NCBI GenBank assembly: GCA_036172245.1
Contig: JAYWIR010000027.1
Span: 2,604,001 to 2,668,000 of the forward strand
Length of the DNA: 64,000 nt
From: Raillietiella orientalis
Taxonomy: Eukaryota
Direction of reading: 5' to 3'
Each line of letters starts with the position of its first letter. Position 1 is the first letter of the stretch. Below are positions 810 through 25,400 of the stretch, in pieces. Under the pieces are notes generated by a model that was not told the origin of the DNA, did not search any database, and saw nothing but the letters and a program-made list of their open reading frames with translations. A program made the position numbers and the translations under genes.

Positions 810-817
810 GTGGTTGG

Positions 818-1441: not shown

Positions 1442-1539
1442 GTGGTTGGCTACTGCCAATTGCCCTCCTCAGGAAGGGTGTCGTTGCCGCGAGGGGTTCC
1501 GCATCGCCCACGCGATTACGAAAGCAACTCCAAAGACGA

Positions 1540-1825: not shown

Positions 1826-1829
1826 ACAG

Positions 1830-2068: not shown

Positions 2069-2074
2069 CTCTGA

Positions 2075-3195: not shown

Positions 3196-5479
3196 GGCCG
3201 CCAATGCCATCTCTCCCCTCTCCATCGGTGGCTGAGGTGGGCCCATCGAGAAGCCCAAGAAGCTGCTGCGAGCGGGTACGCGGGGGAGCCCCTCTGCATG
3301 AGCGAAAAGGCAGAGGAAGGGAGAGGAGTGCTGGTGCTGGTGTTTGCGGTGGCGGCGGCGTGAGGTACCAAGGTGATCTCGTCCCCTGTTTGCTCTCCGC
3401 CAAGTCTCCTAGTCGTCGCGCCATCCACGTCTTCCGGGCCTTCAAGACTGAGACCGGACGGGTGTCCTGGAAAAAGTCGGGATGAGCCGGCCTCGTTCCC
3501 AGGGCAACAGCATGCGCAAGAGGGTGTTCTCCTCTCCTCCCCCGCCCCTCTCCCTCCGCCGACCCGACCCGGCAGGGCTCGCGCTGCTCTTCAAGAATAG
3601 GGAGTGCGAGCGAAAATGAAAGAGGATGCCACTTTAAAGAGAGAGAAAGCGTGACCGGGCAGTCAAGGAAGAAGTCGTCGGCCACGCGCCTCGTGGTCGT
3701 CCAGGAGCCTGCAGCGGCGGACTGCTCCTTCGGCTCGATCCCGCGGTGGAGCGGAAAGGAGATAGGGGGGGAGTGAGTAGGGGGAAGACGCGCGCGCGCG
3801 CGAAGAGGGCGCTTGGCCGAACGCGCAGGCTTGGTGTCCGCGATCCGGGGCCGGGACGGCGAACGGGAACGCTCCCCGACCTCTCCCTCGGCGTCGCAGC
3901 AGTCCCCGTGCGTTTCCTCCCTCCCGAAATCGAAACGAGAGGTCTCCTTCCTCCGGGATCGAAACTCGCCCTCTGTCCGCAGCTGGACCCCGAAACCCCA
4001 TCTCATTCCCCGAGATCCCCTCCTGCCTCCGCCGGCCGGGTCATCAGATCGATGCGATTTCATACCCACTGCTTCATTCATTTCCATCGGCATCTCGCGA
4101 GGAGGGGAGAGGCGGGATCACGGGAACATCCTCTGGAAGGGAGGATGCCAGCTCGAGATTACCGGCCAATCTCCGTGTCAGAAAAATTAGCTCCGTCGCG
4201 CGCGAACAAGAACTCCGCAGTCACCTCTGCGGAGGCGCGCCGCGGGGAAGCACTATGGGTACCGGCGGGTGCTGAGCAGCGCCATCTCGCCTCGAGGAAC
4301 GTACTCAAGGAGGAAGAATAGAAAAGGGGAGGGCCGGAAATCTCTCGTTGCGTCACGAGGCGGGAAGAGCTGCTCCTGTTCTGGAAGGAGGTTGCCTTCC
4401 CCGCCGAGAGGTTCCAGGCGGCGCTTCCGTCAGCCCCGTCGCAGCCGCCGTTATGGCGCTCTCCGCATTGGATGCGCCCTCTTGGAAAGACTGGGGAAGA
4501 AGCGCGGAGAAAGAGGGAGGCACAGGGAGGGAGAGGTGCACAGCAGCGGCGATCCTCTGGTTCTCGAGGGAGGCCTGGGGCGAGCGTCCCCGTGGATTCC
4601 TCCGCGTCGAGAAGTCTCCAAACGTAGTTTGGTTCCCGGGAGCGAGTCGCGTGTTTGCGCCGACCGGGACACTTCGGCGGGCTCGCGGGCGGCCCACCCT
4701 GCACGCCTTCCTGAAGGCGAGTCCGTCCCTCACTCCCCTTCCCCGACGCCTCCCGGTCGCGCCAGGGCGTTCGTTCTCACTTGCAGCCATCAGAAAGGGG
4801 TGAGGGAGGTACAGCAATGCAGATTGGGTCGTAAGTCAGAGAGTGTCCCGACGGAGAAGAGGAGGAAGGTCGCCCAAGAGACAAGCCTCAGGGCAGCAGG
4901 TGCCAGCAGCATGCAGCTCGTGTGTGGCAGCAACGACGCTGTCGTTAGCAGCAGGTGTGGGAGCAGGTACGCACAGAGGTGGCTGGCGTTATGCGACAAT
5001 CCCGATGGCGCTGCCGCAGGGAGGCAAGGGACATAGCTCGCAGCATCTCGTGTGTCAAGCAGGCGGGTCGGAGTGGCCCCATTCTCCGGAACCTGCTTCC
5101 TATCATGTAGCAGGTTCTGGAGAGTGGGACTCCCCTCGTCTGCTGGACCAAAATGCCTAATCTTGGCCCAGCAGGCATGTGCATGCTGGGATGAGGAGCG
5201 CTCGTGAGGACGGCCCGAGAGGGCAGAGACGCGAATCTCCTCGGTGCCATTCGACACCTGTAGCTCTGTGCTGGTTCCCAGCCGCAGACCTCTTCTTCGT
5301 CTCTTCCGACTCTTTCGGGAAGCAAGGGGGCGTGCGATGGCCCCACCGTCGAGAACAATCGGTCCCAGTGCCAAGGAGAGCGGCGCAGGAAGAAACCCAT
5401 TAGCAGGCGAGGAGGCAGCTGCAGCAGAGACTCCGGGTCCCTCCAAAGGCCGAAGGACTCCAGATGAGCTGGCTTGAAG

Positions 5480-6400
5480 CCAGCTAACCTGTCCAGTTAA
5501 GTTCGTCTCGGAGAAGGAGGGGAGGGGGAGAGAAGGGGTGCCAAATGCAAGGAGAGAGAAAAAATGGGTGGTCATTATTTGGGTGAGGGGATCACCGACC
5601 ATCCTCTGGGCTTCTCTGCGCTGGACACAGGATGGCCAGTCCCGAACAAAAGCCGCCACCATCCCACGTCCGCAGGATGCCGCTGGTCACTGAGTCCGGT
5701 TCTGAATGACATCAAGGCCCGTGGACTCCGACGGGACGCTTCGAATCTTCCGCTGCTCATCCTGAGAGATTGTGTCCGCGGGCAGGATGCGCCTGCGAGG
5801 AATCGACCGAAGGGTAAGGTCCCTAAGGCCGGGAGGCGACTCGCGCAGTGCTCACCGCTCCTTTATCTCCTCTCAGAGCCACAAAATGGCTCTTGGTTGG
5901 CGGCGGGAGCAGGCGCTTGCCATGTGAGACCAGCCGGCGGCGGTCCCGTTCCCTGCCTTTGCCCCTGGAGCAAAATGGCCTGTCCTGGCAGGCAGGACGT
6001 CGGAACGCGGACGCACGTTCCTGGCTCCTGCTTCGAAACCTGCGCGGGGCGACTGATCCGGGAACTTTTTGTCGCGAGGTGGCGTCACGCGCCATCTTTG
6101 CCTTGCCGCCGCTAGATGGATGCAGCGGCACCGGAGGTAGCGCTTTGCTACGTAGCAGGGACCTCCTGCGCTTTCTTCGCCATTCGGTCGCCCGCGGCGT
6201 TTCTCGGCCGTTTCTTTAAAACACCAACACGCTTCCCGTAGACTCTGTGTACGATCCGTAATGCCTCGGGAATGCAGTGTACGCCTCTTCCTGTAACGCG
6301 GCGGGCGGACAGGGTGCGCCGCCAGGATTTCCCATGGAAACTGCAGCTGCTACAAACCGGAGCACTCCCCTCCCCCATTTTCGTGAGCGTCGCATCGTTT
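5480..6400 (-). mobile_element. Highly decayed non-LTR 3' region
   Basis: PVCSSC motif near 6350. Near 5590-5645 the sequence resembles the family A ORF2 end (…CAGAGAAGCCCAGAGGATGGTCGGTGATCCCC) followed by a pyrimidine tract. Confidence 0.3.
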
Positions 6401-6559
6401 CCTCACTCAAGAATCCCTTTTCCGAGCGCCGGCCTCATGGCCCCACACCCCATCACGATTCGACCTCCCTGCTTCCGGTGCCCCGACCATCTCCTTCTCC
6501 TGGCGAACGCTCGGTTTCCTCAAACGTGAAAGACACCTAGCAACGAGCGTCTCACGTTT

Positions 6560-7557
6560 GTTTTCTCCGGGGACTCAGGATCGACTGAACCACTCTTAAA
6601 GGTCGTTCGCCTGGACGCTCCCTCCCCATCAGGCCTTCAGGGTCCCACAGGTGCATTCGCTAGCACCACCAAGCTGTGTGCCCGCTGCAGCCCCAGGCGA
6701 GAGCTCGCGGCCAAACTCTTCCGGCGCGCGCGTCTCCCGGCCGCAGTGCACCCGAAGGCAGGAGCGGCCCTGTTCCGGCGGCGTCAGGAGGCGGAGGGCT
6801 CGACTCTTCGAACGCCACCCACTTTCAGGGACAGCTGCTTCAGCAGGTGAGCCGCTGGCGGCACCGCTTAGCCGAGTCCGACTTCCGTCCATGGCCACCG
6901 TTGTGCTGTCCATAGCAACCGACGCCTTCGCGTAGAAAGCCCAGTAACCCGACGTTCAGTCCACTCCAAAGCACCGGTTCTGCTCACCAAAGCAAACCCT
7001 CTGGGCGCCCATAGATCCGACAGTCCGAGCTTTGGCGTCCAAGCGAGCCGGACTTCTCATCCATTTCAAGTTCGAGGACTAGTCAAAGTCACCTCGTCCC
7101 CAGTCAGTCGCTTTACCTAACGTGATTCCCCTCTTCCCTTCCGCCCCAACGAGTGCCAGCTGCCCTGAGGGAAACTTCGGAGGTAACCGGTCACGAGGTG
7201 GTTCGATCCGTCTTTTGCCCAGACTCCCACGACGAATTCGAACGTTAGTATCGCCACGGGGCCTCCACCAGAGTCGTCTCTGGAGTCATCCTGGCCAGGC
7301 ACGGGTCCAGCATCATTCGATGCGTTCCGACGGACAATCGCGCGTTTACGGGATGTCACGGGAGTGCTCCTGCGTACGCTCGAGAGGGAGCCGCAAACGG
7401 CCGCGAGAAACCTCCTGCGGGCGGATCTTCCCAGATTGGCTCGCGCGCTATCGGACACCCGCACCTCTCGTGTCCGCCCGCGGACAGCGACGCGCGTTGA
7501 CTCCTCCCTAGCGCGAAGGAGGAAGCCACGCGCTCGCGTGGGAAGACGGACGAGCGA
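6560..7557 (-). pseudogene. Decayed 28S (LSU) rRNA fragment, roughly from the 3' side of D2 to D7
   Basis: Collinear conserved LSU blocks on the minus strand: CCAGAG.ACGA.CTCTGGTGGAGG, CCTCCGAAGTTTCCCTCAGG.CAGCTGG, AACTTGAAATGGATGAGAAG, GGACGGAAGTCGGACTCGGCTAAGCGG, CCCTGAAAGTGGGTGGCGTT, CAGTCGATCCTGAG. Many substitutions and indels fall in normally invariant positions. Confidence 0.85.
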
Positions 7558-9039
7558 TGCCACCCGGATACGCCGGGACGTTTATTCAATCTCTCCATAT
7601 AGTCATGACAATACGTGGTACAAGGCCCCTCTAACGGCCAATAACACCGGACCTGCCGGAACACCGGGACGCAGCACGGCGTGACTCTCCTCGGCAGTAG
7701 AAGGGGATGGGGGAAAAAACAAAAAGAAAAAATAAAACAATAAGGCAGAAAAAAGAATTTAGAGGGTGGGGAAGGGATCACTGACCACTGGGAGGAGGGT
7801 CCATGCTTTGCAGGATGCCCTCGAGGTCCTTCTTTAGTCCACCCAGCTGGGGCCATACGGTAACTCTCTGCAGGAAGCGAACAGCATACGGGATGACGGC
7901 CCTCTCGTTGGCATCTTCATCTTCGGCTTCACTCCAGGCTGCCACAAACCCATGGATGCAGCAAAGTGCTTCCAGGGCTGCGGCTGGCTCCAGGGAGTCC
8001 CGCACGAAGAGAAGGCGGTAGACGTCTCTGTGGTTGTCGCCAACCGGTATCCCAAGGGTCGTTCCGAAACGTTTCCACAGGCGCCGGAGGGCAGGGCAGT
8101 CAACTATCAGGTGGGGGAGGGACTCCTGCTCCCCGCACCTGGCACACTCAGAGTTTACTCTCCCCCTCATCCAATGAAAGCGGCGGGCGTTGCAGGGTAG
8201 ACCTCAATGCAACAACAGGAGCGCCGACTCTTGCTACTTGAGGGGGAGGATCCTTAAACCATTCAATACCGGGGGCCACTTCAGGTCATCCGTCGGGATG
8301 CCGAACAGCTCGCCTTATCGCAAAAGTCCACGCGGAAGGACACTCGGGGTCGTGGCATCTGACAGCTCTCCCATGGTCCAACCGCTCATCTTCTCTCTGC
8401 CCGCGATCCGACAGGACTCTTGCCACTTCTGTGTCCGTCCGCTGAAGAGGGCCCTCCGTAGGAAGGGCAGCGCCGTAGCTAAAGGGGTAGTCTCCGCCCA
8501 TGTGCTCCTTGTGGTACACCCCAGAATGGTCCTCAGGGCGTAGGGCCCGAATCGCAGGCAGTTCCAGCTGTCATTTCTCTGGGCATTTAACTTCGCTCAT
8601 GTTCCAACAGGTTCCTCCATCCATGCGGAGTAGTTGGCGGGGCTGCATACCATCCAGCCGTTCTCCTTGGCAAGTGTGGCCATGCGTCCAAGGAGAAGGC
8701 CTCATCTTCTGATCTTCCGGCCGGGGCACAGAAGATGAGACGCGAGTCCTTGCGTCCTGGATACACAACTAGCTAGGAGGCGGGCCGGAACGCACCAAGG
8801 GGTGCTCCACAACTTCGCTGCGATAGCCATGGTGTGCCATCGCAGCTGAATTTTCAAGCGCTCCAGCGTCAGGAGGCCAAGACCGCCGTCCTGACGCGGA
8901 GCGCATATGTCCTGCAGCTTCACTTGGGGCCTCTCGTTGCCCCACAGGGCGATACGAAGAAGGTTCTTGGTTCGCTTCTTCAACTGGGAAGGACGGGGTA
9001 AACAAAAAGCAGGGGGCTGAGGGCTTGTCCGTCCTCGTT
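7558..9039 (-). mobile_element. 5'-truncated family A copy inserted into the 28S-like sequence
   Basis: ALWGNERPQVKLQDICAPRQDGGLGL…, CARCGEQESLPHLIVDC…ILQSMDPPPSGQ*. AATAAA + hairpin at 7561-7577. 14-bp TSD AGACGGACGAGCGA at 7544-7557 and 9040-9053. Confidence 0.9.
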
Positions 9040-9139
9040 AGACGGACGAGCGAAGAAGAGCGACGCGCCAGCGACCCTGCCCGGCCTCAGAAGGCGGGAA
9101 ACGAACGGGGAGCGCGCGCAAACGCGCTTCCACCCTTCC

Positions 9140-10680
9140 TTCAGGCACTCGCCGGTGCCTCCGGGTAGATTTCCCCCCGCGCGTCGGAAGAGGATCCTGG
9201 AATCCGCAGCTGCTTTTCGGCACGCTGGACGCGCGTCGAACCAGCCTCAGGGGAAGGTCTCTTCGGGGAGGAACTGACCTCCATCGCTGGATCGAAACGT
9301 ACGCGCGTGAGAGCGCGCACGGTGGCGCGACGGTGAGGGAGCAGCGCGGGAGAGGCTCGCAAACCGTGCCGGGTCTGCGCCTCTCTCAGGAAGAAAAGTG
9401 TCTCCAAATGTCCCTGGGGCCATCCACCTGAATTTGAAGGGTCATCGCCGGACGATCCCAGAATGGGCCGGAAGGTGGCAAAGCCTAGAGGCAGATGTGG
9501 GAAGGTTTCTTCTTTCCCGCGTCCACACTCCCCCGGGTCCAGTGGCGGAGACGCGCTTTGCATTGGGGGATCCCCAGACGCAAGGCCTGCAGCGCCAGCA
9601 CCTGCCACTATAGGGGAGGGTAGAGCTGTCCGTGAAGACAACGGGCAGCGCCAGATCTCCTGGAGGGACCTCGAGCAGCCGGACCCAACGTATCAGGCCT
9701 TCTAGTGGGACGCCGGCAGTTTTGGCGTTCCTCCAACTCCCGTGCCGTCCACTCACCGAGAAGTTTCCTTGCCTCTGAAACATCGCAGCAGAGTGCCTCC
9801 CAGCTTCCCGGATTGGGAGCGTATCCTTCTCTTCTCTTGGGAGGGGGCCAGCACCGGGGCAAGCGATGCCAGCAGGGTCTTCCGTGTGTTTCCCACGGCC
9901 TCCTGCAGCGACCAACGAGCGTAGACGCCGCGTTGCAGATGGAAGAACTTCGCTTCTCTCGAGCCGTGGGTCCTCCCCCTCGCACCAGCGGACTCCTGCA
10001 GCCAAGTGGTGCTGTTCGCGGACCAAACAGAGCCTCCAGGCGTTCTCTCTCACCAAGGCAATCGTCTGTCAGAGTTGATGCCCGTACCGGGCCACGCCCT
10101 TCGGTGTCTGACAGACGAGGACCGAAGTCCGTCGCTTCCGTCCGCTCGCTTGCTCGGCGAGGAGACGCTCCAAGGCACCGTCCGCAACTTCGCCGCGAGA
10201 GCGAATCTTCTTCGGAATGGACGCTCCGTGAGCCCGTCCGGAGTCTGAAGGCCCTGCCCACTGTCTTCACAGGCGGAACGCATAGGTCTTTCAAGCGGCT
10301 TCCCTGTGTCCCGGAGGGCTCTTCGGAAAGGGTTCTCAGTCCCTCTTTCGATGGTGACGAGGGGACGGAGGGGGAAAGAGAGGAGGGGCAAACAAGAAAC
10401 AGGGGGCGGAGGAGAGGAGTCACGACAGCGTTGCCAGCCGCAGCCCGTTCCGGCAAGTGAAGCTTGCCCTTCGAGTGCCATCTCCACTTTCTGGAAACGG
10501 CAGGACCCGGCTTCTGCGGGACGGAAGTCCCCCAACGAAACGCCAAGGTACTTCAAGTACCAGCCCATGGGATCCTCCAGGCGGATTCAGTCCAATAGTC
10601 CAACCCATGCCCCTCCCACTGCCACTACCGACGACTTTGCCCTGTTCGCCTCCAGACCCGTCCCACTCTTACCAGGAAGA
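9140..10680 (-). mobile_element. Decayed family A ORF2 fragment (end of RT to zinc finger)
   Basis: GTGLEANRAKSSVVAVG…YLKYLGVS matches the end of the RT at 60030-60155. GECGRGKEETFPHL zinc-finger remnant near 9500. Confidence 0.75.
9524..10570. repeat. About 1.05-kb near-identical copy of 61825-62871
   Basis: Base-by-base match at offset 52301, with only a handful of substitutions over the first ~900 bp. Nearly identical ORF translations appear in the ORF track. Confidence 0.95.
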
Positions 10681-10689
10681 ACAACAGTT

Positions 10690-11207
10690 GGATCTCCCGC
10701 GACAATGGGAACCCCCGGCGGCAATTCCAAGGACGCAACTCCTCCTCCTACGCGATGCCCTTCGTCTGGCCTCCGTCCAGCAGGGAGCCTCGCTAGCGGC
10801 TCCCTGCTGCCTGCACGGGATTTTAGCAGCGGTCTGGAGCCACGCAAGAGGAGCACCGAGCAACAGCACATCCACTTTGCTGGACGAGAGGATGGCAATG
10901 AGATGGCCCCACCTGAAGGACTGCATGCAGCAAGAGCTTGCCAGTATCCTCGGAAGAATGCAGAGGACCTCCCTCAGGGGGAAGTGACCCCTTCCCGCAC
11001 CCTCACCCCCACCCATGCAAGGTTTATTTGTTTCTTTTTTTTCTTTTCGTTTGCTCCCTTTCCCCTACTGCTGTGGCGGACCTCACCGGTCGAGGAACCA
11101 GTCACCCGGCAGGCTCCGCTGAAATGGACGTGGTTGGACCTATGGTCCAACCAGTCTTTGTAAGTGTTTATTTTTATATTAAATAAACGTTCCGGAGCAC
11201 CGGGTGA
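10690..11207 (+). mobile_element. Family A 3' end
   Basis: LLLLRDAL…QQELASILGRMQRTSLRGK*, T-rich tract, then AATAAACGTTCCGGAGCACCGGGTG (hairpin 11190-11206). Confidence 0.8.
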
Positions 11208-11226
11208 TAATCCTTTCTCCTACTTA

Positions 11227-11700
11227 GCGGTCGCCTTTAGAAAGCAGAGTCGGCACTCAGAGTGTTGTTCCTAAACGACAAGTTCCTCCTGACGGAAAGG
11301 GCTGTCCTCTGGAACACGTTCGTAGCTTCCCTCCTCTGACTCCCCTCCCTCTGCCCTGATTTCTGTTTTACCCCGTCTGGAGATGTAAAACAGCGGACCA
11401 GGGTCCTTCTGCAAAGACCCTTCTGGGGAACGCAGAGGTCCCGGGTCCGCTTGAAGGACCCATGCGTCGGGACTCCGAGCCCGGCCTCCCGATGCACGGG
11501 AGAAGTTGGAGCTCCGTCCCAAATCCGGCACTCTGGGGTCTTAGCAGCCGAGCACCCACTGGTGCGTCCCGGCCGGACTCCCGGCTAAGCGAGCAGCCGG
11601 TGCCGAGAGACTCGTCACGTTCCTCGTGCGCGACTACTGAGGGTCGTTCCGAAGCGGGGGACGCAGGGGTGCCAACCGCGGCAGACAGTTGCCTCGGTCC
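11227..11700 (-). mobile_element. Inverted family A internal fragment (post-RT GGLG region)
   Basis: The minus strand encodes PVHREAGLGVPTH, equivalent to APRQDGGLGL in 8702-8983. Confidence 0.55.
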
Positions 11701-12740
11701 ATGAGGACAGATGGATTTTCTGCCGCCCCACCAACCGTAGTTGCTCCGGCATGACCGGGTGTCAACCAACCGCAGTTGCCCGGAAACAGGAAGCGATTCA
11801 GGCGCGGGCGAAAAGAAACGGAGCCATCGCGATGCCGGCTATCCACAAACTTCGCTCGCCGCTTGCTGCAGGAAATCTACGGCTTGCCCAAAGAGAGGTT
11901 GGAGCGGGAACACCCCTGGGCATGGAGACCCCACTTGGGGCATGCCCGACACGACGCAGCAAAGTGGGCATGGAGACAGCCTTGCGAGATGGGTAATATC
12001 CTGCGAGATAGCGAGAAAAGCAGCTGGGATTCTGGACCACGCGTCAACTGATACGCTTTTGCCCCCAGCCGCCCTACCCAGAGGGATCCTTCGCAGGACG
12101 GAGCTTCTTGAGATTTCCCTGGGGGCATCCGAAATTCTCCCAGTGTTCGTGGACAGCTCCACGCTTTCCCTGAAGTGACGCGACTCTGCATTCGCAGATC
12201 CCATGCAACGCACGAGCCCACTCCTGCACGAGGGAGTGGGTGGGTGGGTGGGGCCCCGGACTGGGGCTGGGTGCAGCGAATGGGAAACCTTCCCGTACCT
12301 GTTGCTGGATTGCGTCGCCCTCCCGAGTATCCGAGAACGCCCCGCTGCGCCTCCCCCCTCCCCCTTCCCGCTCCTGACAGAAGACGGCAGAAAGGTCGCG
12401 CGACTCGATGTCGCCCCCAGCCTCCCTGCTGTGAGATTGTGGCAGCGAGAAGCCACGCCGAAAGAGGCTGGTCACACGGTGACGTCACCGCAACCGTCTG
12501 CTCGTTCGTGAGGGAGGTGGCACGATGGCCACTTCTCCCTGCCAGCAGCAAGAGGAATTTGCCTGCATCCTCCAGAGGATGCTGAGGGAGCCAGGAAGGA
12601 ATCCTCGATCCCTTCCCTCCTCAGCACATTCTAAGACCCCCCCCCCCACCTTTCCTGTGCGCACCTCATCGAGCGGGCTGCTCACGAGAAGCAGCGCCTC
12701 GGGGGCATCTCCCTTCATGGTGGGAGGCCGCGAAACCGCT
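11701..12740 (+). mobile_element. Decayed family A ORF2 C-terminal region + start of 3' UTR
   Basis: GILRRTELLEISLG, CSEWETFPYLLLDCVALPS and QQEEFACILQRML align with the ORF at 56287-57174. Confidence 0.75.
11745..11764 (+). mobile_element. 20-nt insertion consisting only of the family A terminal hairpin
   Basis: TCCGGCATGACCGGGTGTCA is flanked by ACCAACCG(T/C)AGTTGC at 11730-11744 and 11765-11779. Confidence 0.8.
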
Positions 12741-12789
12741 TAGCAACCCATGACGCTTCCGCAAGGCGGTAGATGCAGCGTGCGACAAT

Positions 12790-13270
12790 AAGTGACGTGT
12801 GGGTGTCCACTCCAGCCAGCTGACCAGCAGGTGCTCCCATACTTCGCTTCCGGGGGCTGTTCTTCGGGACCGGAGGCGACCCTCTGCCCAGCTCCAGCGT
12901 TTCGGGACGCCGAGTCCGCCGTCCCGACGCGGAACGCACGAGTCCTTCCAGTGGACTCAGAACCCCCCAGGTGTGCCCCAAGAGGCCTACACTTTGATCT
13001 TAGCCAAAAGGCCGAGAAGCGAAGGCCTTTCGCCTCGGTCCCTTTGGTTACCCTACTTGGAGGACGGCAATCGAAAGGGAAGGGCAGGAGGAGGGGACCG
13101 CAAAAGGGCGCTCCACAGGACGGCCTGTTCCGGCAGGAGAAACGGGCCGAGCACACGTTGCCTCTCACTGCTGCACCTGCCGCCCTGAGGCAGCCGCATC
13201 GGTTGCCGCGCAACGTCAGCCACCTCTGTACGGTCCTCCCACCTGTTGCTAATGGCAATGTTTGGCGCCT
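12790..13270 (-). mobile_element. Inverted family A post-RT fragment
   Basis: Minus-strand KDSCVPRRDGGLGVP and AKYGSTCW match DICAPRQDGGLGL and AKLWSTPW. Confidence 0.65.
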
Positions 13271-13289
13271 CGCACACGTTGTCGCTTAT

Positions 13290-13545
13290 TGTTGACCCCA
13301 CCCCACTTTTCCTGTGCGGACCTCAACGGACGGGCTGCTTACGAGAGGCAGCGCCTCCGGATATCTCCCTTCATAGTAGAGGGCCGCGAAACCTCTACGA
13401 AGGAAGACACCTGCTTTCTTTTCTACATACAATAAGACGGTTTTTCGTTAATTATTGTACAAAAACTGCCACGTTATATTTACGAAAAAAAAATACACGG
13501 TTCATATATAAATAAATAAACGTGACCTCAGCTGATCGGGTGAAA
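13290..13545 (+). mobile_element. Family A 3' UTR and degenerate terminus
   Basis: 13297-13395 resembles 12640-12738. The segment ends in AATAAACGTGACCTCAGCTGATCGGGTGAAAA. Confidence 0.65.
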
Positions 13546-13659
13546 ATATCCCTACTTAACAACTCGTAGAAGCCCTCGAGCGCTGACACTGGGGTGGACA
13601 CGGGGAGCAGCAGCCGGTTGTCGGCCCCCAGAATCCGAGCCACTCCCTTCCCGAGACCC

Positions 13660-13828
13660 AATCGCATTTCCCCTTCCTTTGCCCTTCTTCCTCTTCATGG
13701 GACTCTCTGATTTCTTTGGCTGACTCCACCCCCCTTGCTAAAGAGGAAGAAAACTGCATATATATCTATATATATATATTCTTTTTCTTTTTTGGAGTGT
13801 ACATCGACTTCCCGGAGCATCCGGGCAC
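13660..13828 (+). mobile_element. Probable further family A 3' remnant
   Basis: Pyrimidine tract, AT-rich stretch and hairpin CCCGG-AGCAT-CCGGG at 13811-13825. Confidence 0.45.
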
Positions 13829-14229
13829 GAAAAGGCAGGATGCCATCCCTTCTCGGACCCTCTGTGCATTTGTTTCCATGATTTTCGTTCGTCCCTCCTT
13901 CTCACTTTGCTACCGAGGCAGCGGACCCCGGCGGTCTGCATGCCGGCACTCCTTGGCACACCCAGGTGGCTGCGGACGCGGTGGGAATCCCGCCGCCCGA
14001 CTCTTGTGTGTCTCTCATCCCCCCCCGCGCAACCGGGTGGTGGGTGCGTGCAATCCCGCTGTCTTTGCACCGGAGAAAGTCGAGAGGCGCAGCTGCCGCC
14101 ATCACAGAATCAAAGGATCGCAGAAAGCGAAACCGGAAATCCGGAGGCGATTCCTACTTTCGCGATGTCCTCATCGTTGAATCCGTCCTCATGTCCCCCA
14201 TCCCCAGCCCAGAACCGTTGCCTCCTTGG

Positions 14230-14895
14230 GAAAGGCTTATGAAGCTCTTTAACACCGCCTTCTATGAATCCCGGATGGACTCTGGAGGAAGGAATCCGTT
14301 CTTCTTGCTCATGGGAAGGAACTCCGAATGGGATCCTCCAACCTGGTTGTCTCCGAAGGGAACCCCGAAAGGAACCTCTTCCTTATTCTCTCCAGAGAAA
14401 CCCCCTGGATGAGGTCACTCCAAAGTGGATCCTGTCGAAGGGATCCGCTCCCTGTTTCCTCTCCCTCTGAAGGGACGCTTCATCATTCCTCCCAAGGGTC
14501 ACCGCTCCCCAAAGGGAGCAGCGCACTTCTTGACCCTCTAGAGGGGTGTATCAATCCACCAGCCCTATGGTACCCCTTGGAAGATCCCCCTCACTGTGGT
14601 AAAAGGAAAGGGGGACAGCTGTCTTTTCGCAACTGGAGGGGAACAGTCCCGAAGGGTTCTTTGGTGTCCTGGAAGGACCCCGGAGGGTCTAATTCCCAAT
14701 CCCAGTCACTCAACGGAGGCATCTAGCTCCCACCAGTGCTGCACCCGGAGCCAACCAAGGCCAACCAGCGTCATCTTGCGGGAGCGACTCGAATCCCTCG
14801 GCGTACCCCTCGTACTCGGCATCGGTTCTTCCCCGGGAGGGATTCGAACCCACGACGCCTAGTGTCACGTGCGAAGAGACCGCAGCTGAGCGGCC
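14230..14895 (-). mobile_element. Long tRNA-derived SINE (uninterrupted copy)
   Basis: B-box GGGTTCGAATCC on the minus strand at 14840-14851. The body is homologous to 2075-3195 and 29270-29520. Confidence 0.7.
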
Positions 14896-15080
14896 TTCAA
14901 AAGGAGTAAGGAAAGAAGAAGAAAAACGAAAAGTGAAGGCGACAAAGAAGATTTAATAACGGGCTAACCCTCAGCAAACGCACGGGCCCATTCCACGTAA
15001 TGAGTCCTACGCTACAGAACAGAACCACTCCTTTCACCTCCGAATGAGACGTCGTCTGCTTCGTGGAGGGACCATCTTGG

Positions 15081-16079
15081 TTGACACCCGGTCGCTCCAG
15101 GGCATTTATTTATAAAAAACAAACGTCTGTGACTGGACGTGTGATTCTGCCTCGCTACTTATAACTACGAGAAGGAACCTGCCGGGATCTGGCACGTAGA
15201 CCAGCAGGGTCGTCTCGGCAGCACAGGGGAAGGGGAGGCAAACAAACAGAAAAAAAAATAAAATAAAAAACATTCAGTCAAAACATTGGGAGGGTCCAAA
15301 AAGGGATCAACGAGTGCTGGAGAACTTCCTCTAGATCCTCGTAAGGATGCCGGCAAGTTCCTGTTTGAAGACTCCTAGATGGGATCATCCTGACGCTGTC
15401 CTCATGAAGGGGGCAGCAAAATAGATGCCGTCCCTGTCGTTCTGGCCTCCTCTGGAGTTGCTTCATGCAGCTACGGTCCCATCGCTTAGGCAGCAAAGTG
15501 CTGCTAGGCTTGAGTGTGTCGCGGAAGGAATAGGAAGCTCTTTCAAACGTCTCTGGGTTTGCCGCCGAGGTTCCAAGGGTCGCGGCAAAGCGTTCCCGAA
15601 AGGTCCGGAGAGAAACACACTCCATGAGCAGGTGTGGGAAGGACTCTCTCTGGCGGCAACTGCCGCAGTTTGGCCCACCTTCTTCCCCCGGGTCCAATGG
15701 TGTGAGCGGGCGTTGCACGGGAGACTCCAGTGCAGCAGCAGGATTGCCGACTCCTGCCACTTCATGGGGAGGGTGCCAGTGTTCCAACACGCTGGGGGTC
15801 ACTTTACCTCTTCCAGAGGCATTCGTAGCAGCTCTCCTCAGCGTAGCAGTCCTTTTGGAGGGACGATCGGGGTCGTGGCGTCCGCCAGATCCCGAGTTGT
15901 CCACGTACCCAAATGTTCTTTCGTGTTTTGTATTATGCATGCCACTTCCCACCTCGCTGAATGTTGAGTATCCAGTGCTCCCCTTAGGGAGAGCAGCACT
16001 GGGACAAGGGGGGTGAACGAAGCCCACAGCAGATTTCTAATGTTCCCCAGGATCTCCCTCAGCGGCTGCTGAGGAAGAT
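15081..16079 (-). mobile_element. 5'-truncated family A copy
   Basis: LREILGNIRNLLWA…WTTRDLADATTPIVPPKGLLR, PNCGSCRQRESFPHLLMEC. AATAAA + hairpin at 15085-15102. TSD CCATCTTGG at 15072-15080 and 16080-16088. Confidence 0.9.
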
Positions 16080-19000
16080 CCATCTTGGCGGGTGGCCACT
16101 CGGCCGTCCGAGCTCCTCCTCCACCCAGCCTAGAAACCTAAGCGCTCGCGCTCACCGAAGACTCAGCACCTGGCAGCTGGTGTGCGTGGGGAGTTGAGCG
16201 AATCCCAAGCGACGACACCCTCGAGCGCTCCCGAAATCCCCGAAAGTAAGATAGGGTGTGCGGAGAAGACTGACGGCTGGCGGAGGCACCGGGACTCCGG
16301 CGCGTAACGCGGGCGAGCCGTCGGTCCCGGATGACGCGGACAGCTCGTTCGAAGACGCGTCCGAAACAGCAGAGGCGAAACCGCGGTGGGGCAAGGCGGC
16401 GATGCGGCATTGGGGAAGGTCACACAAAAAAGTCCCATCTGCCTCCCCTAGGGCTTTGGGGGAAAAAAAGGGAAAAACCCTGAGTGGGATCCGATGCAGC
16501 ACAGCTCCAGACTCTTCAGAAGAGTCCCTCTGGAAACGGGGCGTCACCACCCGTCGTCGCCCACATTGCGCCGCGGCTGCCACTCGTAACCTTTCGTTGA
16601 TGAGGAGCCAAGGATTGTGCAACGGAGCCGATCATTACAAAAGTCTGCTGCTACTGCACTAATCAAAAAAAAAAAGATTCGCCAGCTGGCACACCTGTTC
16701 TCTCCTCTTTTTTTTTTTTTTTTGTACTCGCAGCCCGAGTTTTATTTCGTTTTTCGATACACAGGGCGTACCTTGCCGTATCCCATTTTAAAGTCTTTTC
16801 CCATCTTAATAAGGCCGACTCGGGAGAGAACGGTAAGCATGCATCTGAATGAATCTCCCTCAGCTCTTGTTTTCCAGCGATTTTTTTTTTCTTCCTCTTT
16901 TTTTGTTCACGATTCTATTCACTTCGGTTTCCAAACTTGCGTTCGGATTGGACCCTTCGATCTTCCTCAAGTTCCTGGGCGCTTAGGAAAATTGTAGGAG
17001 CGACTCGCAAACTTGGGGGGTCGGGAAACTTGCAGTTTCTGCTTCGCGCGGTATTTCCTCCTCTCTTTCCTTTTCCCGACCCGACGCCAAGTCGCCATCA
17101 TCTTGTTTACAACCATCTCCTCCGAGAATTTTGCATCTCTGAAAAGCTACCCGTAGAAGCCACGCGCAACAGCCCTCCAGCCTCCGCTGGTCTCCCAGGT
17201 CGCGCGGCGTTCGAAGACTCGCGTCCCCTCTCCTCCCCACCAACATCCATCCCTTCTTGGAAGACGAAAATGGAGACCCGCGGCGACAGCGACTGAACTC
17301 GTTCCGGTTTGAGAAGGGGGCTAAGGAAGGGCCCCTCAAATCGGTCTCTAAATGGAGAAGAATCCTCTAAATATAGAAGGAGCGCCTCACCTAGTAACGG
17401 CAGCAACAGGAATGCCGGCAGTGCGCGTGGGAGGCAACTGGGAAATGGGGAAATTGGCACGAATCGACGATGCCTGTGCAGATGCATTTCACCAATGGCG
17501 TCGTCAGCGAAGATCTTCGTCGCGATGGAAATCGGTTTTCAACAGTCTTCGATTCATCTCTTTGTGAATCCTTCCGCGAGACCGAGGACGAGTTGAACCT
17601 GGAAAAATGCTGCGACAAAGTTTCAACTACTCACGTCAGTGATCCGTATCGATAAGAAGAAAGAAAAAAAGATAAAGACAGTGATTGGTAACGATGGCAA
17701 CCCATTGTCTCCCAAAATTTCTTTTCCGTTTCACCTTTTGTTTGATGGAGGGCGGGGAGGGGAGGAAGGCGGGGAGGGGGAAGCTTTCTCGAACTGTTTT
17801 AGAGTTGCTTATTCAAAATTCTGGCCCTGCTTGTTGCGACAGATCCAAGTTTTGTTATGCATTATCAATTTTTATGCATGGTGGTTTCATGCCGTTGAGT
17901 TTACTTTCCACAGCTCACCTCCACATTTTAATTAGTCGAACACCTTGTGATTTTCCTCCAATGGACTCGGTTACGCGCGGATTAGAAAAAAAAAAAAAAA
18001 ACTTTTTTTTTTCTAAATAATAATGATGAATACTGGTGTCCTTCGACTAGTAGCTTGGATCCTGAGGGATTGATGACGCAAATCCCATTTGTGTACAGAA
18101 GTAGTGAGAATGGGCTCCTTCCCGCCGGGCGCTCCTGCAGCCGGGTTTGCCTCTTTCCTCCGCAATCAGGACAAGAAATCTGCGAAAAAGCACAGCTGTC
18201 ATGAAGACGCCTGCGGCTATCTTTTAAACTCCAGATGGACATGTGGCTAGATGAAAGTGAAGTGATTCGGTGATTTGTTAAACTTTTGCTGTTGCATTGG
18301 TCTCTGAATAGGTCGTGACTCCTGCACGCCGTCGCTGACATTCGGACTCGCTGAAGCCGGAATTCGGAAACCTGCTGCTGCTGCCGAGGAAAGCATATTC
18401 AGGACCAGATATGACAAATGCTCCACCGAAGAGTGAGAGGCAAACAAGATGAAGAAAAGCACCCATTTATAATGTCTTCTAATGGTTTAGGCCAAAGTCA
18501 GCCCTTTCTGAGCAAAAACAGCGTTTCGTTCCGCTTCGCGAGTAATTGGTATCGAAGAACACAGCAAGAGTGGTGCCATATAAACCGGTCATTATGTATG
18601 TGTATATAAACTACAGATCTCTTCAGATTGTTTTTTTTTTAAGAAAAAAAAAATCTGGATGATTTTCAGGAAAACTTCTGGGCGCATCCACGGCGGAGTG
18701 AAAATTTTTCGTGTGGGTGGCAATTTGCCTTTGGAAACTGCAAATAGCCTAGGTCAAAAAAAAAAAAAAAAACACCTTGGGAAAATTGCCGTTAGATAGA
18801 AATTTTCTTTACTGATGTCTCAGCATGGTGGTATTTCAGAAAAGAGGAGAGGAATAAATATGTTCGTCAGTTGTATTCTGCTCGAGCCTACTCCCCGTTG
18901 TGTCAACACTCGATGGTATGCTCCAAGATTTTGCATACGAGATGCATATTTTGAAAAGAACTCCTTGACATGGAGGTTCCCATTAGAGGAGGCCCATCAC

Positions 19001-19950: not shown

Positions 19951-21747
19951 TCACAATTCTGCATGGCTCCTTCGCTGTTTCGCGGCAAGCCATGCTGGAT
20001 GTTGGCGTACCATCTGGGCTGCCTGAGCCACCAGTAGAATAAACTCATTCACATCAAATCTGTAATTGGTAAACTTCTGATGTGCTCCTCCAGTGTCTGG
20101 ATGTTGTCCCTGGAACATACAACAAGTGAACAAAAATGGATACACTCAGATCCAGTCAAGGTTCACTTACTGCATCCTGTGGAAAGACTTTGCTCTCGTT
20201 GGTCCATGTGATGTAATTGAGACCTCTAAGCCTGGCAAGATCCTTGTAACAGTGTTGATCCCCACAATTGTACCTAAAGCAAGGTACCTTCTGGAAATGC
20301 AGTAACCACTCACAGTTCAAACACAGATGCCCAGTCAGGCAGGAACAGTAGGTGAGTTAAACCAGACCCATGCATGCCAATTAGAATGTCAGTATTGTGT
20401 GTCTGCTGCAACTGCTGAAGGAAAGGTACATCCCAGTGGTAAGCAGCCTACAAGATAGCTGGTCTTCATGCTCATGGAACCCATTATGCTTACTCTTTGC
20501 ACAAGATAATTGCCTGTTTTGTGCAGAGCTGTCAAGAGCTGGTCCTCATTGAGAATCCGTCGGTGCTTAGTGAGGCGAGAAACGAGGGTGACCCGAAGAT
20601 GCTCAGATGGTGCTTGGAATGGTACTTTCAGACGATGCAACAAAAAACGATTAAATGCATGGAACAGGCCGCTGTTCTGACAGCCTGGCACCAGAGGGGT
20701 ATTGTAATAGAGGCCAAAAATAGTCCGTGGGAGCACAGGGAGCACTAGATCTTTGAAACAAACTCGTTTACCCCGTACATGATCCAGTGTCAACAGGGGC
20801 TCCTTTGTAAAAGCAGAGAAGGCAGCACGAAAATTCGAGATATATGGATGATTGTCCCAAATCAAGATACGAGTCTGTAATTGGGGAGGATAAGAACCAT
20901 TGACATGAAGTGACACAAATAAGTTGAAGAAATCGCAGAAATGGTGATACATGCTGACCACTGCTGCCCATGATGGATAACTAGGTTCCAATCATTTACC
21001 TGCATCCAGTTTCATGATAAATGCTGGTTCTTCAATCACCCAATCACAGGTAAAATTTTTAAGAGACACAAAATTACGTAATTCTGAAGTCCATGACTGC
21101 AGAGCTCCAGGCCTATCAGCTTGCTCTAGCAATTCCTTGTTCACATCACATTGGCCACCCAGCTGTCCAGGATGCAGTACATCTGGTTTATAGCGCAGGC
21201 TCTGGGAAGGGTTAGGAAGCTGCCGAAAGTCAAACCACAGATTATGTCCATGGCAGAATTCCAGATGAGCAGAGCACTCCAGCCAAGATGTTTCTGTCTA
21301 CAAGAAGCTAAAGCAAATATCTAGGCTCCCTCACCCTATTGCCACACAGCATCCTAATGGAATGTTTTTTTGCCCTCACATAACCAAAATCTGCCTGTGC
21401 ATAAAATGTTTCCAACTGTTTTTCTTTGGTTGTGACCCAGCCCTGAGGATCCCCTAAGCACTGAGGGGATGAGTACCACTTCCAAGAAGGACAATCCGCT
21501 TCATATCCCCAGCAGATAGACCGATTCAAGTGCATCTGCCAAGGATGCCCCATCTGATCTCCCATTACAGAATGCTTACTTTGAATGGGCATGTATCAGA
21601 CATGGAACATTCTTGAGATGCACTGGGATTATGGTTGAAATACAAAGCCAGGTGCTCTGCTGGAAGATCAGGATCCCAGACAGCAAGACATACCCATGGC
21701 AAAACAAAGATCAACCTTAGAGAGCATATCACTGTATTCTGGCACAT
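19951..21747 (-). CDS. EOGT: EGF domain-specific O-linked N-acetylglucosamine transferase, about 509 aa; exons 21747-21580, 21535-21335, 21297-21000, 20960-20494, 20447-20314, 20273-20171, 20109-19951
   Basis: All introns are GT-AG and the frame is continuous (1530 nt). Signal peptide; motifs [87 protein letters not shown]-terminal ER-retention-like HAEL. Confidence 0.95.
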
Positions 21748-21748
21748 C

Positions 21749-22489
21749 TTAAAAAAGCAGAATGTGAGGTATGCTAATATGCGGAAGTCTTCCTTGTAAA
21801 TAAGGTATATGTTGAACTAAGTCAAACCAACGGACTAAGTAAGATAATTTCTGCCTGCAGATCACATCCAGACGGCACTAAAAGTAAAAGACCATAGTTT
21901 CTTGAGTCAAAAGCAAAATACTGATTCTAGAATTACAATGCATCTGAAATTTGGTATTCAAAGTCATTCCACATACCAAAAGAGGGTGGATATCAAAATA
22001 GAAAAGCAGGTCCACAATTGTCAGTTTGGTACCAAGAAAAAATGTCTGGTGTTTCAGTGCTTCATTCAATTCCTGAAAAATTCTTCGATAGTCTACACAG
22101 CAAAAACAGTAATGAAATCCAGAAAGAAGAGTTACCCCTAATTCCCATTACTTTGAGAATATCAGCATCATCTTTTTTGAAAGCTGAATTATGTAAAAAA
22201 CACATTCGGTACTCCAACCATTGTCTGGTTAGTGCCTGTTCTAAAGATGTGTTGCCCAACCATTGACTCTGCCCACAATCCAAGAGATATTGAGCAATAG
22301 AGGAAAACTTGGTCAAGTTAAGCAATTGGGGTGCAAGTTGCATTTTGGAAATTATCTCTTCTATCTACAAAGGGAAAAAGAATGACTCCAGAATATGAGA
22401 GAATTGAAATATGTGTATTCATGAGGAACGTTTATCTTTAGACAATAACTTACGATATTCAAATGAACAGTTTTTTTTTTTTTAATCAT
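21749..22489 (-). CDS. EEF1E1: Eukaryotic translation elongation factor 1 epsilon-1 / AIMP3 (p18), about 157 aa; exons 22489-22454, 22364-22152, 22072-21977, 21877-21749
   Basis: GST-C-like motifs LGNTSLEQALTRQWLEYR, LKELNEALKHQTFFLGTKLTIVDLLFY and YLVRWFDLVQH. Three phase-0 GT-AG introns. Exon 1 (MIKKKKTVHLNI) is less certain; an alternative start is the ATG at 22343. Confidence 0.85.
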
Positions 22490-25400
22490 CGCTTGATTTT
22501 ATAAATAAATCTAAAAATGTTCGGTGATGAACGTGCATTTCTACAGGGTTATTACGAACGGGACCGTGCATTTCATGTTAAAGAACATTCTCATTTGCTA
22601 CTTTTCTTGCGATATCCTGTTATTTCCTCTTTCTTTCCGGTTCTTAATGGTTTGTGAACAGCCCCTTGAATATCCAACGTTCATGACAGGGTGCCATCGA
22701 ACGATGACTGTAGCATGCAACGTGCTTTCAACTGAATCAACAACAACTTCTTTCGTACTAATAGTAACTTGCGGACAGAACCAACAAGACAAAAGTCACG
22801 AAGATGAAACAACAGAAAGTTCAGAAATGCAAACATCAAATGATGTTCATCCGGATTCCGGCAAATCGCAAACCTCACCTGTAAAAACTTAATTATAATT
22901 CCGAAAGGATACACTAGCACTCTGGACCATTTTCAAGGTAACAGAATCACACCCCAATCACACTTCGAGTCGTTTTCTTCAATATTATGAATTTTGTAAC
23001 TGAAACCAAATTTCACAGCTGCTTTCTTCGTAGCTATTAATTATAGGTTGGGACACAACAGGGATGAAGGCACACAGTGCTTCCTAAGTTTTGAAACGAA
23101 GTCATCCACAAAACGATTAAAGATGCAAACCTTTAGGTATTCTTGAAAAAATGATTCAATACATTAGGTATGGAAAGGAAAGAATATTTATGCATTGCAT
23201 GCCAAATGGATTAGTGGCTGCTTCCACCTTTACAGATGCAAATATTTCCAACAAATGAATGGTTTCTCAAAAAAAAAAAAAAAAAAGGAACAAGGTTCTT
23301 TAGGACCGATCATGCTAATAATACAGGAAATGTAGCTCTCGTTATCAGAAATTATAGATGAAAATTATGGGATAAGACATATTTAAAAGATTTAAAAATA
23401 GACAATTCAGCAAGTAGCATATATTTTCATGGTAGCTCTGTGTGGTATGACGTTGGACGAATGGAGAAAAACAGGAGCTAAAAAACAAATGACAGTAGAA
23501 ACCAAAGCATAAATCCAATTAGAAGAATAAAAAGAAGACAGAACGTAAAAGGACCATGCAGAAACCCTGAATCAGAATTGAATATTATGAGCCTCCAAGG
23601 AAAAAGTTGCTTACAAACAACAATCTCAGTTAGAAGAAAAGTTGGAGACTCAAAATTATAGCTCATAAAAACGAAGAATTAGCACCGATCTATAGATTGG
23701 ATAAATACTTTGCTTAAGAGACGGTTCCTGGGATTATCTTAAATTATATAAGCCTAAAAAAGATCATTATCTTTAAGAATGCTATTAGAAAGGCAGTCAA
23801 GCAGTAAATGCTATCAGCACGAATTTAAGATTGTTTTTCATGAGAAAGCCATTAGCTTACAAATGATCAAATGGGCACCATTTTCAGAGAAATTCCAAAC
23901 GGATTCGTTTGTCCAATTCAGGTTTTGGAAGTAAATAGCGACAGAAATCGGATTGTATCGTGCGCGCTGACAGTAGAAGGCAGTGGAAGGCTGCCTGGGT
24001 CGAAGCAAAATGGCGTTTGAGAAAAAGAATAGAGTAAAATAATTCAGGAGAGTTTCAGATGTGCAGTAAAAAATCCTCGTTGCGAAATATCGGGTCCAAA
24101 TGCAATTGGTATGGGTTTTATCTGATTGCTGAGTTCATAAATCATTTGACAGAATATCTACTGTTCGAGTTGCAACATCAGTGAGATTACAGTCAATGTT
24201 CAATCGCACCCTCCTTGCTTATAAAAGAACCTCAAGAAAGTCGCGTGATAATACAATTGCTGTAATCCAAGAACAACACTTTCTGGTCCCAATCAAGACG
24301 CTTCAAATTTTCCTGCTCACCCCAATAAACCGAACTCCTTAACGAGTGTCGCGAATGAATTGCATAAACATAGTATGTAATTAAGTCTCATTAAATTACA
24401 CAACTACTGAACATGAGTAACCTAATTAATGGCATGATTGTTTGGTCAAATCATTCATGAAGCAAATAAACCGACGAGTCCCAATTTCACGTTTTTGTTT
24501 CCAAAGTTGATACATTATTAGCTCCTGGACTACCAGAGGTTTCCTATTTCTTGGAAATTTTGCTCCTAACGGCCTTTCGAAATGGAGATCATGGGATGGA
24601 TATGGGTGCAACCGAGGTGAAAGAATTCGCTACTGCTGTTCCGAAGGAAAAAGGCACGCAACTATTAGGATAAATCATTGGTGTCCTTCGAAGATAGACG
24701 CCAAAGATGCTGTGGTAGATTAAGCTTATGATGAAAACGATAGACAGAAACTCGGAATTTTCGGAAAAGAATCACTGGAGATTTTGCCCACCTTGAAAAT
24801 GTGCTCCTTTAAGTTATCAAGGATCGAATCTGGGTATCTTTAATCGAAGGTAGATGTTCTTAATCAAAAACGATTCATGTGAAACAACAAAACATTCGGT
24901 ATTAGGCAAAACAGCATTTATGCAGGCATTTTTTTTTTTTCAAACAAACAAACAATAAGCAGAGCTTTTTCGGTATGAAAGGACTTTACAGACAGTAAAT
25001 TTACGTCATTTTGGATTTCAAAATACCAAAAATGATTCACGCTAAATCCTTCCCTGCCATTTTTTTTTTTTTCTATTTGAAATCAAATCCAAGGAAACAT
25101 TCGATAGAATTCCGAACTATAAATGCCATCCTGCAGATGAAAAACTGTTGAAGGAAACGACAAGCACAAGCAAGCATGACGAAATTATAATCCGAAGGAC
25201 TGGAATCGTACTGAATGTGTTATTCTAAGCAGAAGGAACCTTGTGGATACGGAAATTGCAATGAATTTTTTCAGGAAACACTGAAAGGAAGAAGAAGATA
25301 AGAATCCCCCAGTCCGGTTGAGAGTCTAGATATGGGGAACGGTGGAAGTGTAATTTCCAGGCAGGTCTCAGGTGAAACAAGGGCTGTGAAGGTGGCGATG

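Follow-up and report, generated by a model that had tools for sequence, protein, structure and literature searches.

One nucleotide between an AIMP3/EEF1E1-like gene and an EOGT gene: a dicistronic transcription unit as a tentative explanation

Among Drosophila genes, 159 dicistronic pairs are recorded by FlyBase and 45 loci are exclusively dicistronic, and the downstream open reading frame (ORF) of such mRNAs is thought to use an internal ribosome entry site, resumed scanning or another mechanism (excerpts of PMC4528330). File S1 of that paper (FlyBase r6.04) gives '1 nt bet. stop/start' for two pairs, CG34314/Rad1 and CG33932/Rpp20, which encode unrelated proteins and are flagged 'all di/polycistronic'; a distance of 0 nt is given for two pairs, 2 nt for one pair, and overlaps in 28 rows. 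A comparable arrangement is found in a 64,000-nt stretch of contig JAYWIR010000027.1 (hereafter the window), where an AIMP3/EEF1E1-like gene and an EOGT gene, two intact and unrelated animal genes, lie head to tail on the minus strand, the AIMP3 stop codon being separated from the EOGT start codon by 1 nt. Similar to the Drosophila pairs spaced by 0-2 nt, two unrelated full-length genes share one strand, the 1-nt spacing leaves no room for separate untranslated regions (UTRs), and the upstream protein is small. In contrast to these pairs, whose shared mRNA was documented by annotators, the AIMP3-EOGT pair is known from its genes alone; furthermore, the gene pair is a different one and, judging from the EOGT tree, the host is not an insect. 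The arrangement is real, its kind is not new, and it is well precedented in fruit flies.

Other described loci resemble the pair in part. The spliced-leader (SL) trans-spliced operons of Ciona intestinalis that lack intercistronic regions (excerpts of PMC7986045) have in common with it a unit of, in most cases, two genes, a near-zero spacing and an acceptor placed directly at the downstream gene, but the upstream gene of Ciona keeps its 3' UTR, whereas here the stop codon itself abuts the candidate acceptor. In caliciviruses and influenza B virus, which use termination upstream ribosome-binding sites (TURBS), stop and start codons likewise overlap or lie a few nt apart, and in TURBS systems the yield of the downstream protein is a fraction of that of the upstream protein (excerpts of PMC10275272). 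Unlike these viral cases, AIMP3-EOGT belongs to a cellular genome, its upstream ORF is spliced, and neither a TGGGA-type motif nor a stable upstream structure is present. At loci with shared 5' exons, one promoter and the common 5' exon(s) serve two unrelated coding bodies; the intron phases observed here are compatible with such splicing, but the candidate acceptor is an AAG within the context of the upstream stop codon, and the junctions are potential ones derived from the sequence.

Read on the minus strand, the boundary between the two genes is ...CTGCTTTTTTAA-G-ATGTGCC, that is, in codons, ...CAC ATT CTG CTT TTT TAA G ATG TGC CAG...

21745..21751, minus strand: junction TAA-G-ATG, with the AIMP3 stop codon at 21751-21749, the G at 21748 and the EOGT ATG at 21747-21745

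A first-pass annotation of the locus had placed stop, spacer and start at these positions, and a re-reading returned the same coordinates. Its identification of the two genes is backed by homology, its assignment of all AIMP3 introns to phase 0 agrees with the gene model, and its statement that no non-overlapping 3' UTR or promoter fits agrees with the spacing. If EOGT has its own promoter, the spacing forces it into AIMP3, and if AIMP3 has its own 3' end, it must be situated inside EOGT. Both sides of the junction are backed by homology, with the ATG located where arthropod EOGT N-termini begin and the TAA where a full-length AIMP3 ends. The AIMP3 and EOGT ORFs are both complete, and their ends at the junction agree with those of their homologues, so that neither a gene fusion nor a wrongly placed start codon appears to underlie the junction. 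Direct observations are the gene structures, the junction, and the positions of stop and start, which are backed by homology. The two gene models are sound, with the reservation that AIMP3 exon 1 is possibly a leader rather than coding.

The 1-nt gap hinges on the exact length of a T6 homopolymer (21752-21757). The EOGT frame is +1 relative to that of AIMP3 and is open through this run (..TFCFFK-MCQ..), and one T fewer would place both ORFs in the same frame; the two ORFs would therefore be joined if the homopolymer is miscounted by one base or if ribosomes slip by +1 on UUU-UAA. Accordingly, one explanation of the junction is a sequencing artefact or a frame-linked expression: with a miscounted T6, one T fewer would give a single in-frame AIMP3-EOGT ORF and one T more an overlap, and a +1 shift on UUU-UAA would give a fusion protein. 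The ease with which a 1-nt change connects the frames is consistent with it, as is the location in an AT-rich island with many long A/T homopolymers, a type of sequence in which some sequencing chemistries are prone to errors. However, each protein ends or begins in register with its homologues, the EOGT methionine heads a typical hydrophobic leader that a fusion would bury, and a GST-like domain is found in none of the best 120 EOGT homologues. We consider this explanation very improbable.

EOGT is the GT61 EGF-domain O-GlcNAc transferase. Its exons were set by tblastn with the horseshoe-crab EOGT and by enumeration of frame-keeping GT..AG introns, the tblastn alignment being colinear over residues 29-522 of P0042. 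The model is complete, with seven exons at 21747-19951 of the minus strand, introns of 44, 37, 36 (or 39), 46, 40, and 61 nt, and a product of 510 aa ending in HAEL.

21580..21747, minus strand: EOGT exon 1, 56 aa, a hydrophobic signal-peptide-like leader followed by DPDLPAEH...CPFK, with a GTAAGC donor and a 44-nt intron
21335..21535, minus strand: EOGT exon 2, from tblastn and intron enumeration
21000..21297, minus strand: EOGT exon 3, from tblastn and intron enumeration
20494..20963, minus strand: EOGT exon 4, the GT61 core (Glyco_transf_61), with the acceptor alternatively at 20960
20314..20447, minus strand: EOGT exon 5, from tblastn and intron enumeration
20171..20273, minus strand: EOGT exon 6, from tblastn and intron enumeration
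19951..20109, minus strand: EOGT exon 7, from tblastn and intron enumeration, ending in ...RRSHAEL and the stop codon at 19953-19951

Exon 4 matches Glyco_transf_61 of Pfam with E 9.8e-6 and 26.3 bits (cut-off 27) and has 403 homologues at E<=0.001 among 926 candidates. Among the best 120 homologues, 101 are named, all of them as arthropod EOGTs (46-60% identity), and a second Pfam domain (PF13896) occurs in a single one. In alignment A1, exon 1 lines up with the N-termini of 11 arthropod or unnamed EOGTs, which follow the pattern of a hydrophobic leader of about 24 aa and a subsequent conserved LPxEH...CP(F/Y)K block. The C-terminal HAEL is situated at the position of KDEL, RDEL, HDEL, HNEL, or HEEL in the homologues, a tetrapeptide of the type that mediates retention in the endoplasmic reticulum (ER). 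Upstream, the EOGT frame stays open no further than 21816, and no other in-frame ATG occurs between the upstream stop and the leader segment, so that 21747 can be taken as the EOGT start codon, unless an upstream exon splices in. In a tree of 36 EOGT sequences (35 arthropod or unnamed homologues plus that of the window, with no outgroup), the window occupies a long branch and pairs with an ostracod (SH-aLRT 93) within a loose ostracod/branchiopod/copepod group (87), which may be read as a hint to the lineage, not as a placement.

EEF1E1/AIMP3 is a GST-fold scaffold of the multi-synthetase complex. The upstream gene was modelled with four exons and 157 codons, interrupted by GT..AG introns of 89, 79, and 99 nt that are all in phase 0.

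22497..22503, minus strand: TATAAAA, a possible TATA box judged by its motif, 14 nt upstream of the modelled AIMP3 ATG
22454..22489, minus strand: AIMP3 exon 1 (MIKKKKTVHLNI) of the model, phase 0, with a GTAAGT donor starting at 22453; coding status doubtful
22152..22364, minus strand: AIMP3 exon 2, 71 aa, with phmmer matches to EEF1E1 of the PDB; alternative ATG at 22343-22341
21977..22072, minus strand: AIMP3 exon 3, 32 aa, GST_C-like, from Pfam and colinearity with EEF1E1 residues 99-128
21749..21877, minus strand: AIMP3 exon 4, 42 aa and TAA, ending in ...PHILLF*, from a TTTTAG acceptor, phase 0 and an open frame

Compared by phmmer to all PDB sequences, exon 2 gave five distinct matches at E<=1, each of which is EEF1E1 (best E 1.4e-4, chain residues 42-97). 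On this exon the similarity of the upstream gene is judged to be specific to EEF1E1 rather than to generic GSTs. Exon 3 continues colinearly in EEF1E1; on its own it matches EEF1E1 at E ~0.9, and a delta-class GST scores better (E 0.075). In Pfam, exon 3 matches GST_C (21.5 bits, E 2.8e-4, cut-off 20.7) and, just below the cut-off of 27, Arc1p_N_like (25.2 bits, E 2.1e-5). No homology match was obtained for exon 4 alone in Pfam and sequence searches, and it was assigned only from splice signals, frame and length; its length sets the stop at about residue 172 of the 171-174-aa EEF1E1, as estimated from the PDB alignments. Read as one frame, exon 3, intron 3, and exon 4 contain an in-frame stop. 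The N-terminus is 14-34 aa shorter than that of the human protein, and the 157 aa of the model compare to a family length of about 170 aa.

With the 71-aa exon, a short and divergent query, a word-index search of large protein databases returned 66 candidates, none of them at E<=0.01, and an exhaustive HMMER search returned six matches at E<=0.001, all in long proteins with 3-17 matched stretches (repeat-like) and none of AIMP3 size. As these large-database searches yielded no AIMP3 relatives, this copy of AIMP3 is a divergent one. A protein atlas comparison gave GST_N-like leads only, all below 0.9.

The beginning of the gene is the least certain part of the model. Exon 1 has 17% GC, a run of 13 A (22471-22483, minus strand) and an Inr-like TCATTT at 22466-22461, and its reading frame (MIKKKK…) hinges on the exact length of the A13 run. 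The TATAAAA ahead of it is the only one on the minus strand between 23600 and 19000. Exon 1 is thus doubtful as coding sequence and may be a non-coding 5' leader, with the start of AIMP3 in exon 2 instead. The exon 2 ATG, with the CAAAATG context TCCAAAATGC, lies at mRNA position 58 and would yield a protein of 138 aa.

For the expression of the pair we tentatively favour, at somewhat less than an even chance, one transcription unit that gives rise to a dicistronic AIMP3-EOGT mRNA. A promoter upstream of AIMP3 (about 22500) would drive a primary transcript through both genes, and the mature mRNA would carry both ORFs. AIMP3 would be translated by normal scanning and EOGT by ribosomes that end at the AIMP3 TAA and, 1 nt further on, restart at the EOGT ATG (A at -3), with other internal initiation as an alternative. 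Co-transcription, a dicistronic mRNA and reinitiation are suggested by the geometry and the Drosophila precedent rather than by RNA data of this organism. Expression as one unit would be the best-precedented outcome for such a geometry in arthropods, since both 1-nt pairs of FlyBase File S1 carry the flag 'all di/polycistronic'. A strict initiator (Inr, TCAKTY) is absent on the minus strand from 22379 to the EOGT ATG, about 630 nt, which we count in favour of this explanation; window-wide, 104 strict matches were observed compared to 122 expected. Between the AIMP3 stop and 19000 on the minus strand neither AATAAA nor ATTAAA occurs. From 23600 to 19000 on this strand AATAAA is absent altogether, and the sole ATTAAA is located at the start of AIMP3. 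The missing hexamers, which leave an AIMP3 3' end within EOGT unmarked, are a weak argument for one unit and do not discriminate between explanations, because the 3' flank of EOGT itself is also devoid of them.

The same observations bear on a second explanation, namely two independent overlapping units, with an EOGT start site in AIMP3 intron 3 or exon 4 and an AIMP3 poly(A) site in EOGT exon 1, intron 1 or beyond. An overlap of 3' UTR and 5' UTR between same-strand neighbours is deemed too ordinary to flag by FlyBase (excerpts of PMC4528330), the unlike GC contents and intron sizes of the two genes fit separate evolution, and in relatives the EOGT mRNA looks monocistronic at 12 of 37 loci, which are transcript-like with a short leader ahead of the EOGT ORF. 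The missing strict Inr ahead of the EOGT ATG and the missing canonical poly(A) hexamer downstream of the AIMP3 stop argue against independent units; in addition, every EOGT transcript would have to traverse the AIMP3 cleavage site, and among the rows listed most Drosophila pairs spaced by 0-2 nt have a purely dicistronic annotation. Taken together, two overlapping units are regarded as unlikely.

Several observations weigh against a dicistronic mRNA. The coding sequence of AIMP3 has 36% GC (37% at third codon positions, GC3) and its introns measure 79-99 nt at 30-35% GC; that of EOGT has 46% GC (GC3 44%), with introns of 36-61 nt at 39-50% GC. This differing make-up suggests that the juxtaposition of the two genes is secondary. 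Leaky scanning to EOGT was considered and is ruled out by nine ATGs that precede the EOGT ATG in the dicistronic mRNA. In case of termination-reinitiation, put forward in the first-pass annotation, the distance of a few nt between stop and start is as expected, but the supporting elements are lacking: TGGGA, the motif of TURBS-type elements (complementary to 18S rRNA), is absent from the last 200 nt of the upstream mRNA, and the fold of the 228 nt spanning the junction is not more stable than that of shuffled sequences (z = -0.34; 72 of 200 shuffles equal or exceed it). In viruses, reinitiation downstream of long ORFs has been described; there it is TURBS-dependent and reaches 3-20% in caliciviruses (excerpts of PMC10275272). 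Given this dependence, the 138-157 codons of the ORF that precedes the EOGT restart count against the proposal as well.

The gene order in relatives adds to these points. One metagenome scan with the EOGT alignment as query gave 80 loci, of which 37 were examined, while short single-exon pieces (L028-L036, L038, L046, L048, L049, L051-L080) were dropped; these relatives are distant, with at most 62% identity on one exon. A tblastn search of the AIMP3 of the window against all 80 loci gave three matches, all at E>=5.2 and thus noise. The 12 transcript-like contigs among the 37 loci carry a full-length EOGT ORF of at least 479 aa with the first ATG within 300 nt of the contig start; these leaders are too short to hold an AIMP3 cistron, with the reservation that a contig may be truncated. 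On the plus strand, the long leaders of L001 (757 nt) and L010 (1048 nt) are devoid of ORFs longer than 59 aa. A GST-like domain was found neither in the 32 ORFs directly upstream of EOGT nor at 14 loci whose 1.5 kb ahead of EOGT exon 1 was scanned as 146 ORF pieces, each 35 aa or longer (L002 and L039 were omitted as duplicates of L003 and L040, and 11 previously scanned pieces were dropped). Adjacency of AIMP3 and EOGT was thus observed in none of the 14 reachable loci with at least 1 kb upstream. A comparison of synteny had been suggested in the first-pass annotation, and its outcome is that the adjacency is not conserved in the relatives reached. For this reason the loci examined give no comparative sign of selection for co-expression, and the arrangement looks lineage-specific.

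The recognisable upstream neighbours of EOGT in the relatives are Gar1 (L003) and Mak16/L28e (L026, L054, and L055). The Mak16/Ribosomal_L28e genes are situated upstream and on the same strand of distant EOGT-like genes (36-41% identity), at 784-1428 of L026, 3850-4647 of L054, and 1339-1971 of L055, so that an adjacency different from AIMP3-EOGT is apparently conserved in that lineage. In Files S1-S5 of PMC4528330 (index html file excepted), Eogt, CG9867, CG30185, and AIMP3 do not occur; AIMP3 and EOGT are therefore not annotated as polycistronic or exon-sharing in D. melanogaster. In the library searched, no paper combines any two of the terms Eogt, AIMP3, and dicistronic. Our assumption that the fly genes CG30185 and CG9867 might be neighbours found no support, and the available passages of papers naming either gene contain nothing on gene order.

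The bases at the junction had also been read as a splice acceptor in the first-pass annotation.

21748..21767, minus strand: pyrimidine-rich tract plus AAG, a putative cis- or trans-splice acceptor that includes the T6 run, with 14 of 17 pyrimidines

The pyrimidine tract is indeed strong, the second best among the 10 sites compared, but all nine real acceptors of both genes are YAG (five TAG, four CAG) as opposed to the AAG of the junction, and AG sites with at least 12 of 17 pyrimidines are common on the minus strand (34 of 247). Among 17-nt coding windows, 32 of 1969 (1.6%) contain at least 14 pyrimidines, a statistic picked after seeing the site. The acceptor reading of the junction is weak.

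If the site is used in cis, a shared promoter and leader exon would serve both genes, and the donor 22454|22453 would be joined either to AIMP3 exon 2 or to AAG|ATG at 21748|21747. The EOGT start would then be the first good AUG of the EOGT mRNA, and the AIMP3 isoform would carry EOGT as its 3' part. The AG at -2/-1 combined with a tract matched by so few coding windows points to this solution. Furthermore, the tract is encoded by an odd hydrophobic AIMP3 tail (...PHILLF*), the candidate acceptor is in phase 0 like all AIMP3 introns, and AIMP3 exon 1 resembles a leader more than coding sequence. The mismatch of AAG to the uniform YAG acceptors, the frequency of pyrimidine-rich AG sites and the post hoc nature of the tract statistic stand against it, and we regard a shared leader as rather unlikely. 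The earlier proposal that exon 1 is spliced to the EOGT ATG and adds a basic n-region is retained as far as the phases are compatible, whereas exon 1 as a coding n-region is weakened by its 13-A run, its 17% GC, the TATAAAA 14 nt away and the Inr-like TCATTT.

If the site is used in trans, the pair would form an operon resolved by SL trans-splicing at AAG|ATG, with AIMP3 cleaved and polyadenylated at or beside the acceptor and left with a 3' UTR of about 1 nt. The acceptor-like site directly ahead of the EOGT ATG is in agreement with such an operon. The median intercistronic distance in Ciona operons is 1 bp, and SL trans-splicing occurs in copepods and amphipods (excerpts of PMC7986045), the former being part of the loose group in which the EOGT of the window is found. 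However, according to the same excerpts no operons have been reported from copepods or amphipods, and the 1 bp of Ciona is the distance between poly(A) site and acceptor instead of that between stop and start, so that an upstream mRNA without UTR would be unprecedented. In addition, the junction is AAG, not YAG, and AIMP3 exon 4 (21877-21749) contains neither AATAAA nor ATTAAA, though the organism may use other signals. An Rfam scan found no SL RNA in the window, which at 64 kb is too small to be informative. Trans-splicing as the explanation of the locus is considered improbable. The same low probability is assigned to what it would entail, an operon resolved by SL trans-splicing whose acceptor lies within the last codons of the upstream gene and whose upstream mRNA ends in a stop codon, one base and poly(A), in a lineage that is arthropod-like (possibly oligostracan or related to copepods) and from which operons have not been reported.

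With a dicistronic mRNA still as the tentatively favoured explanation, the genomic setting deserves attention. The pair is located in an AT-rich island of about 8 kb (about 17.5-25.5 kb; 34-47% GC), and the flanks (1-17000 and 26000-64000) have 55-66% GC. A mobile-element origin of the island was considered and dropped: its borders show no terminal repeats or mobile-element signature, only A/T homopolymers, many of them of 13-23 nt. Around the pair, at 15.3-19.9 kb and 22.5-28 kb, 140 ORFs with a length of 42 aa or more were compared to Pfam and none matched, and no other gene was recognised within 2 kb on either side of the pair. Of the 266 flank ORFs of at least 100 aa, the 150 longest were compared to Pfam, and six matched. 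Among the features recognised are pieces of decayed non-long-terminal-repeat (non-LTR) retrotransposons.

59065-60024, plus strand: RVT_1 (Pfam, E 6.8e-18), piece of a decayed non-LTR retrotransposon
56290-57213 and 7781-8203, minus strand: zf-RVT (Pfam, E 7e-5 and 8.9e-4), pieces of decayed non-LTR retrotransposons

Due to the lack of Pfam genes near the pair and the retrotransposon debris in the flanks, the 1-nt spacing is not forced by crowding or by a general compaction of the genome, which we count in favour of one transcription unit.

Apart from the pair, one cellular gene was recognised in the window, a GC-rich gene at 47107-51590 (plus strand) with DM13 (E 1.6e-15 and 2.4e-6) and DOMON (E 3e-16) in separate ORF pieces. 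A partial, weak match to the eukaryotic model of large-subunit rRNA was obtained at 6672-7331 (minus strand; 104 bits, model positions 673-1449 of 3401), which is probably an rDNA-derived fragment within the GC-rich flank. Tandem-repeat and tRNA scans of the window gave nothing relevant to the pair.

The geometry of the AIMP3-EOGT junction belongs to a type already catalogued in FlyBase, and the locus is a verified structural curiosity that will not surprise a specialist. If co-transcription is true, a housekeeping scaffold of the tRNA-synthetase complex and an ER-lumenal glycosyltransferase of the Notch pathway would be produced at a fixed ratio from one mRNA, and the Drosophila-type dicistronic class would extend beyond the insects to a non-model, arthropod-like animal.

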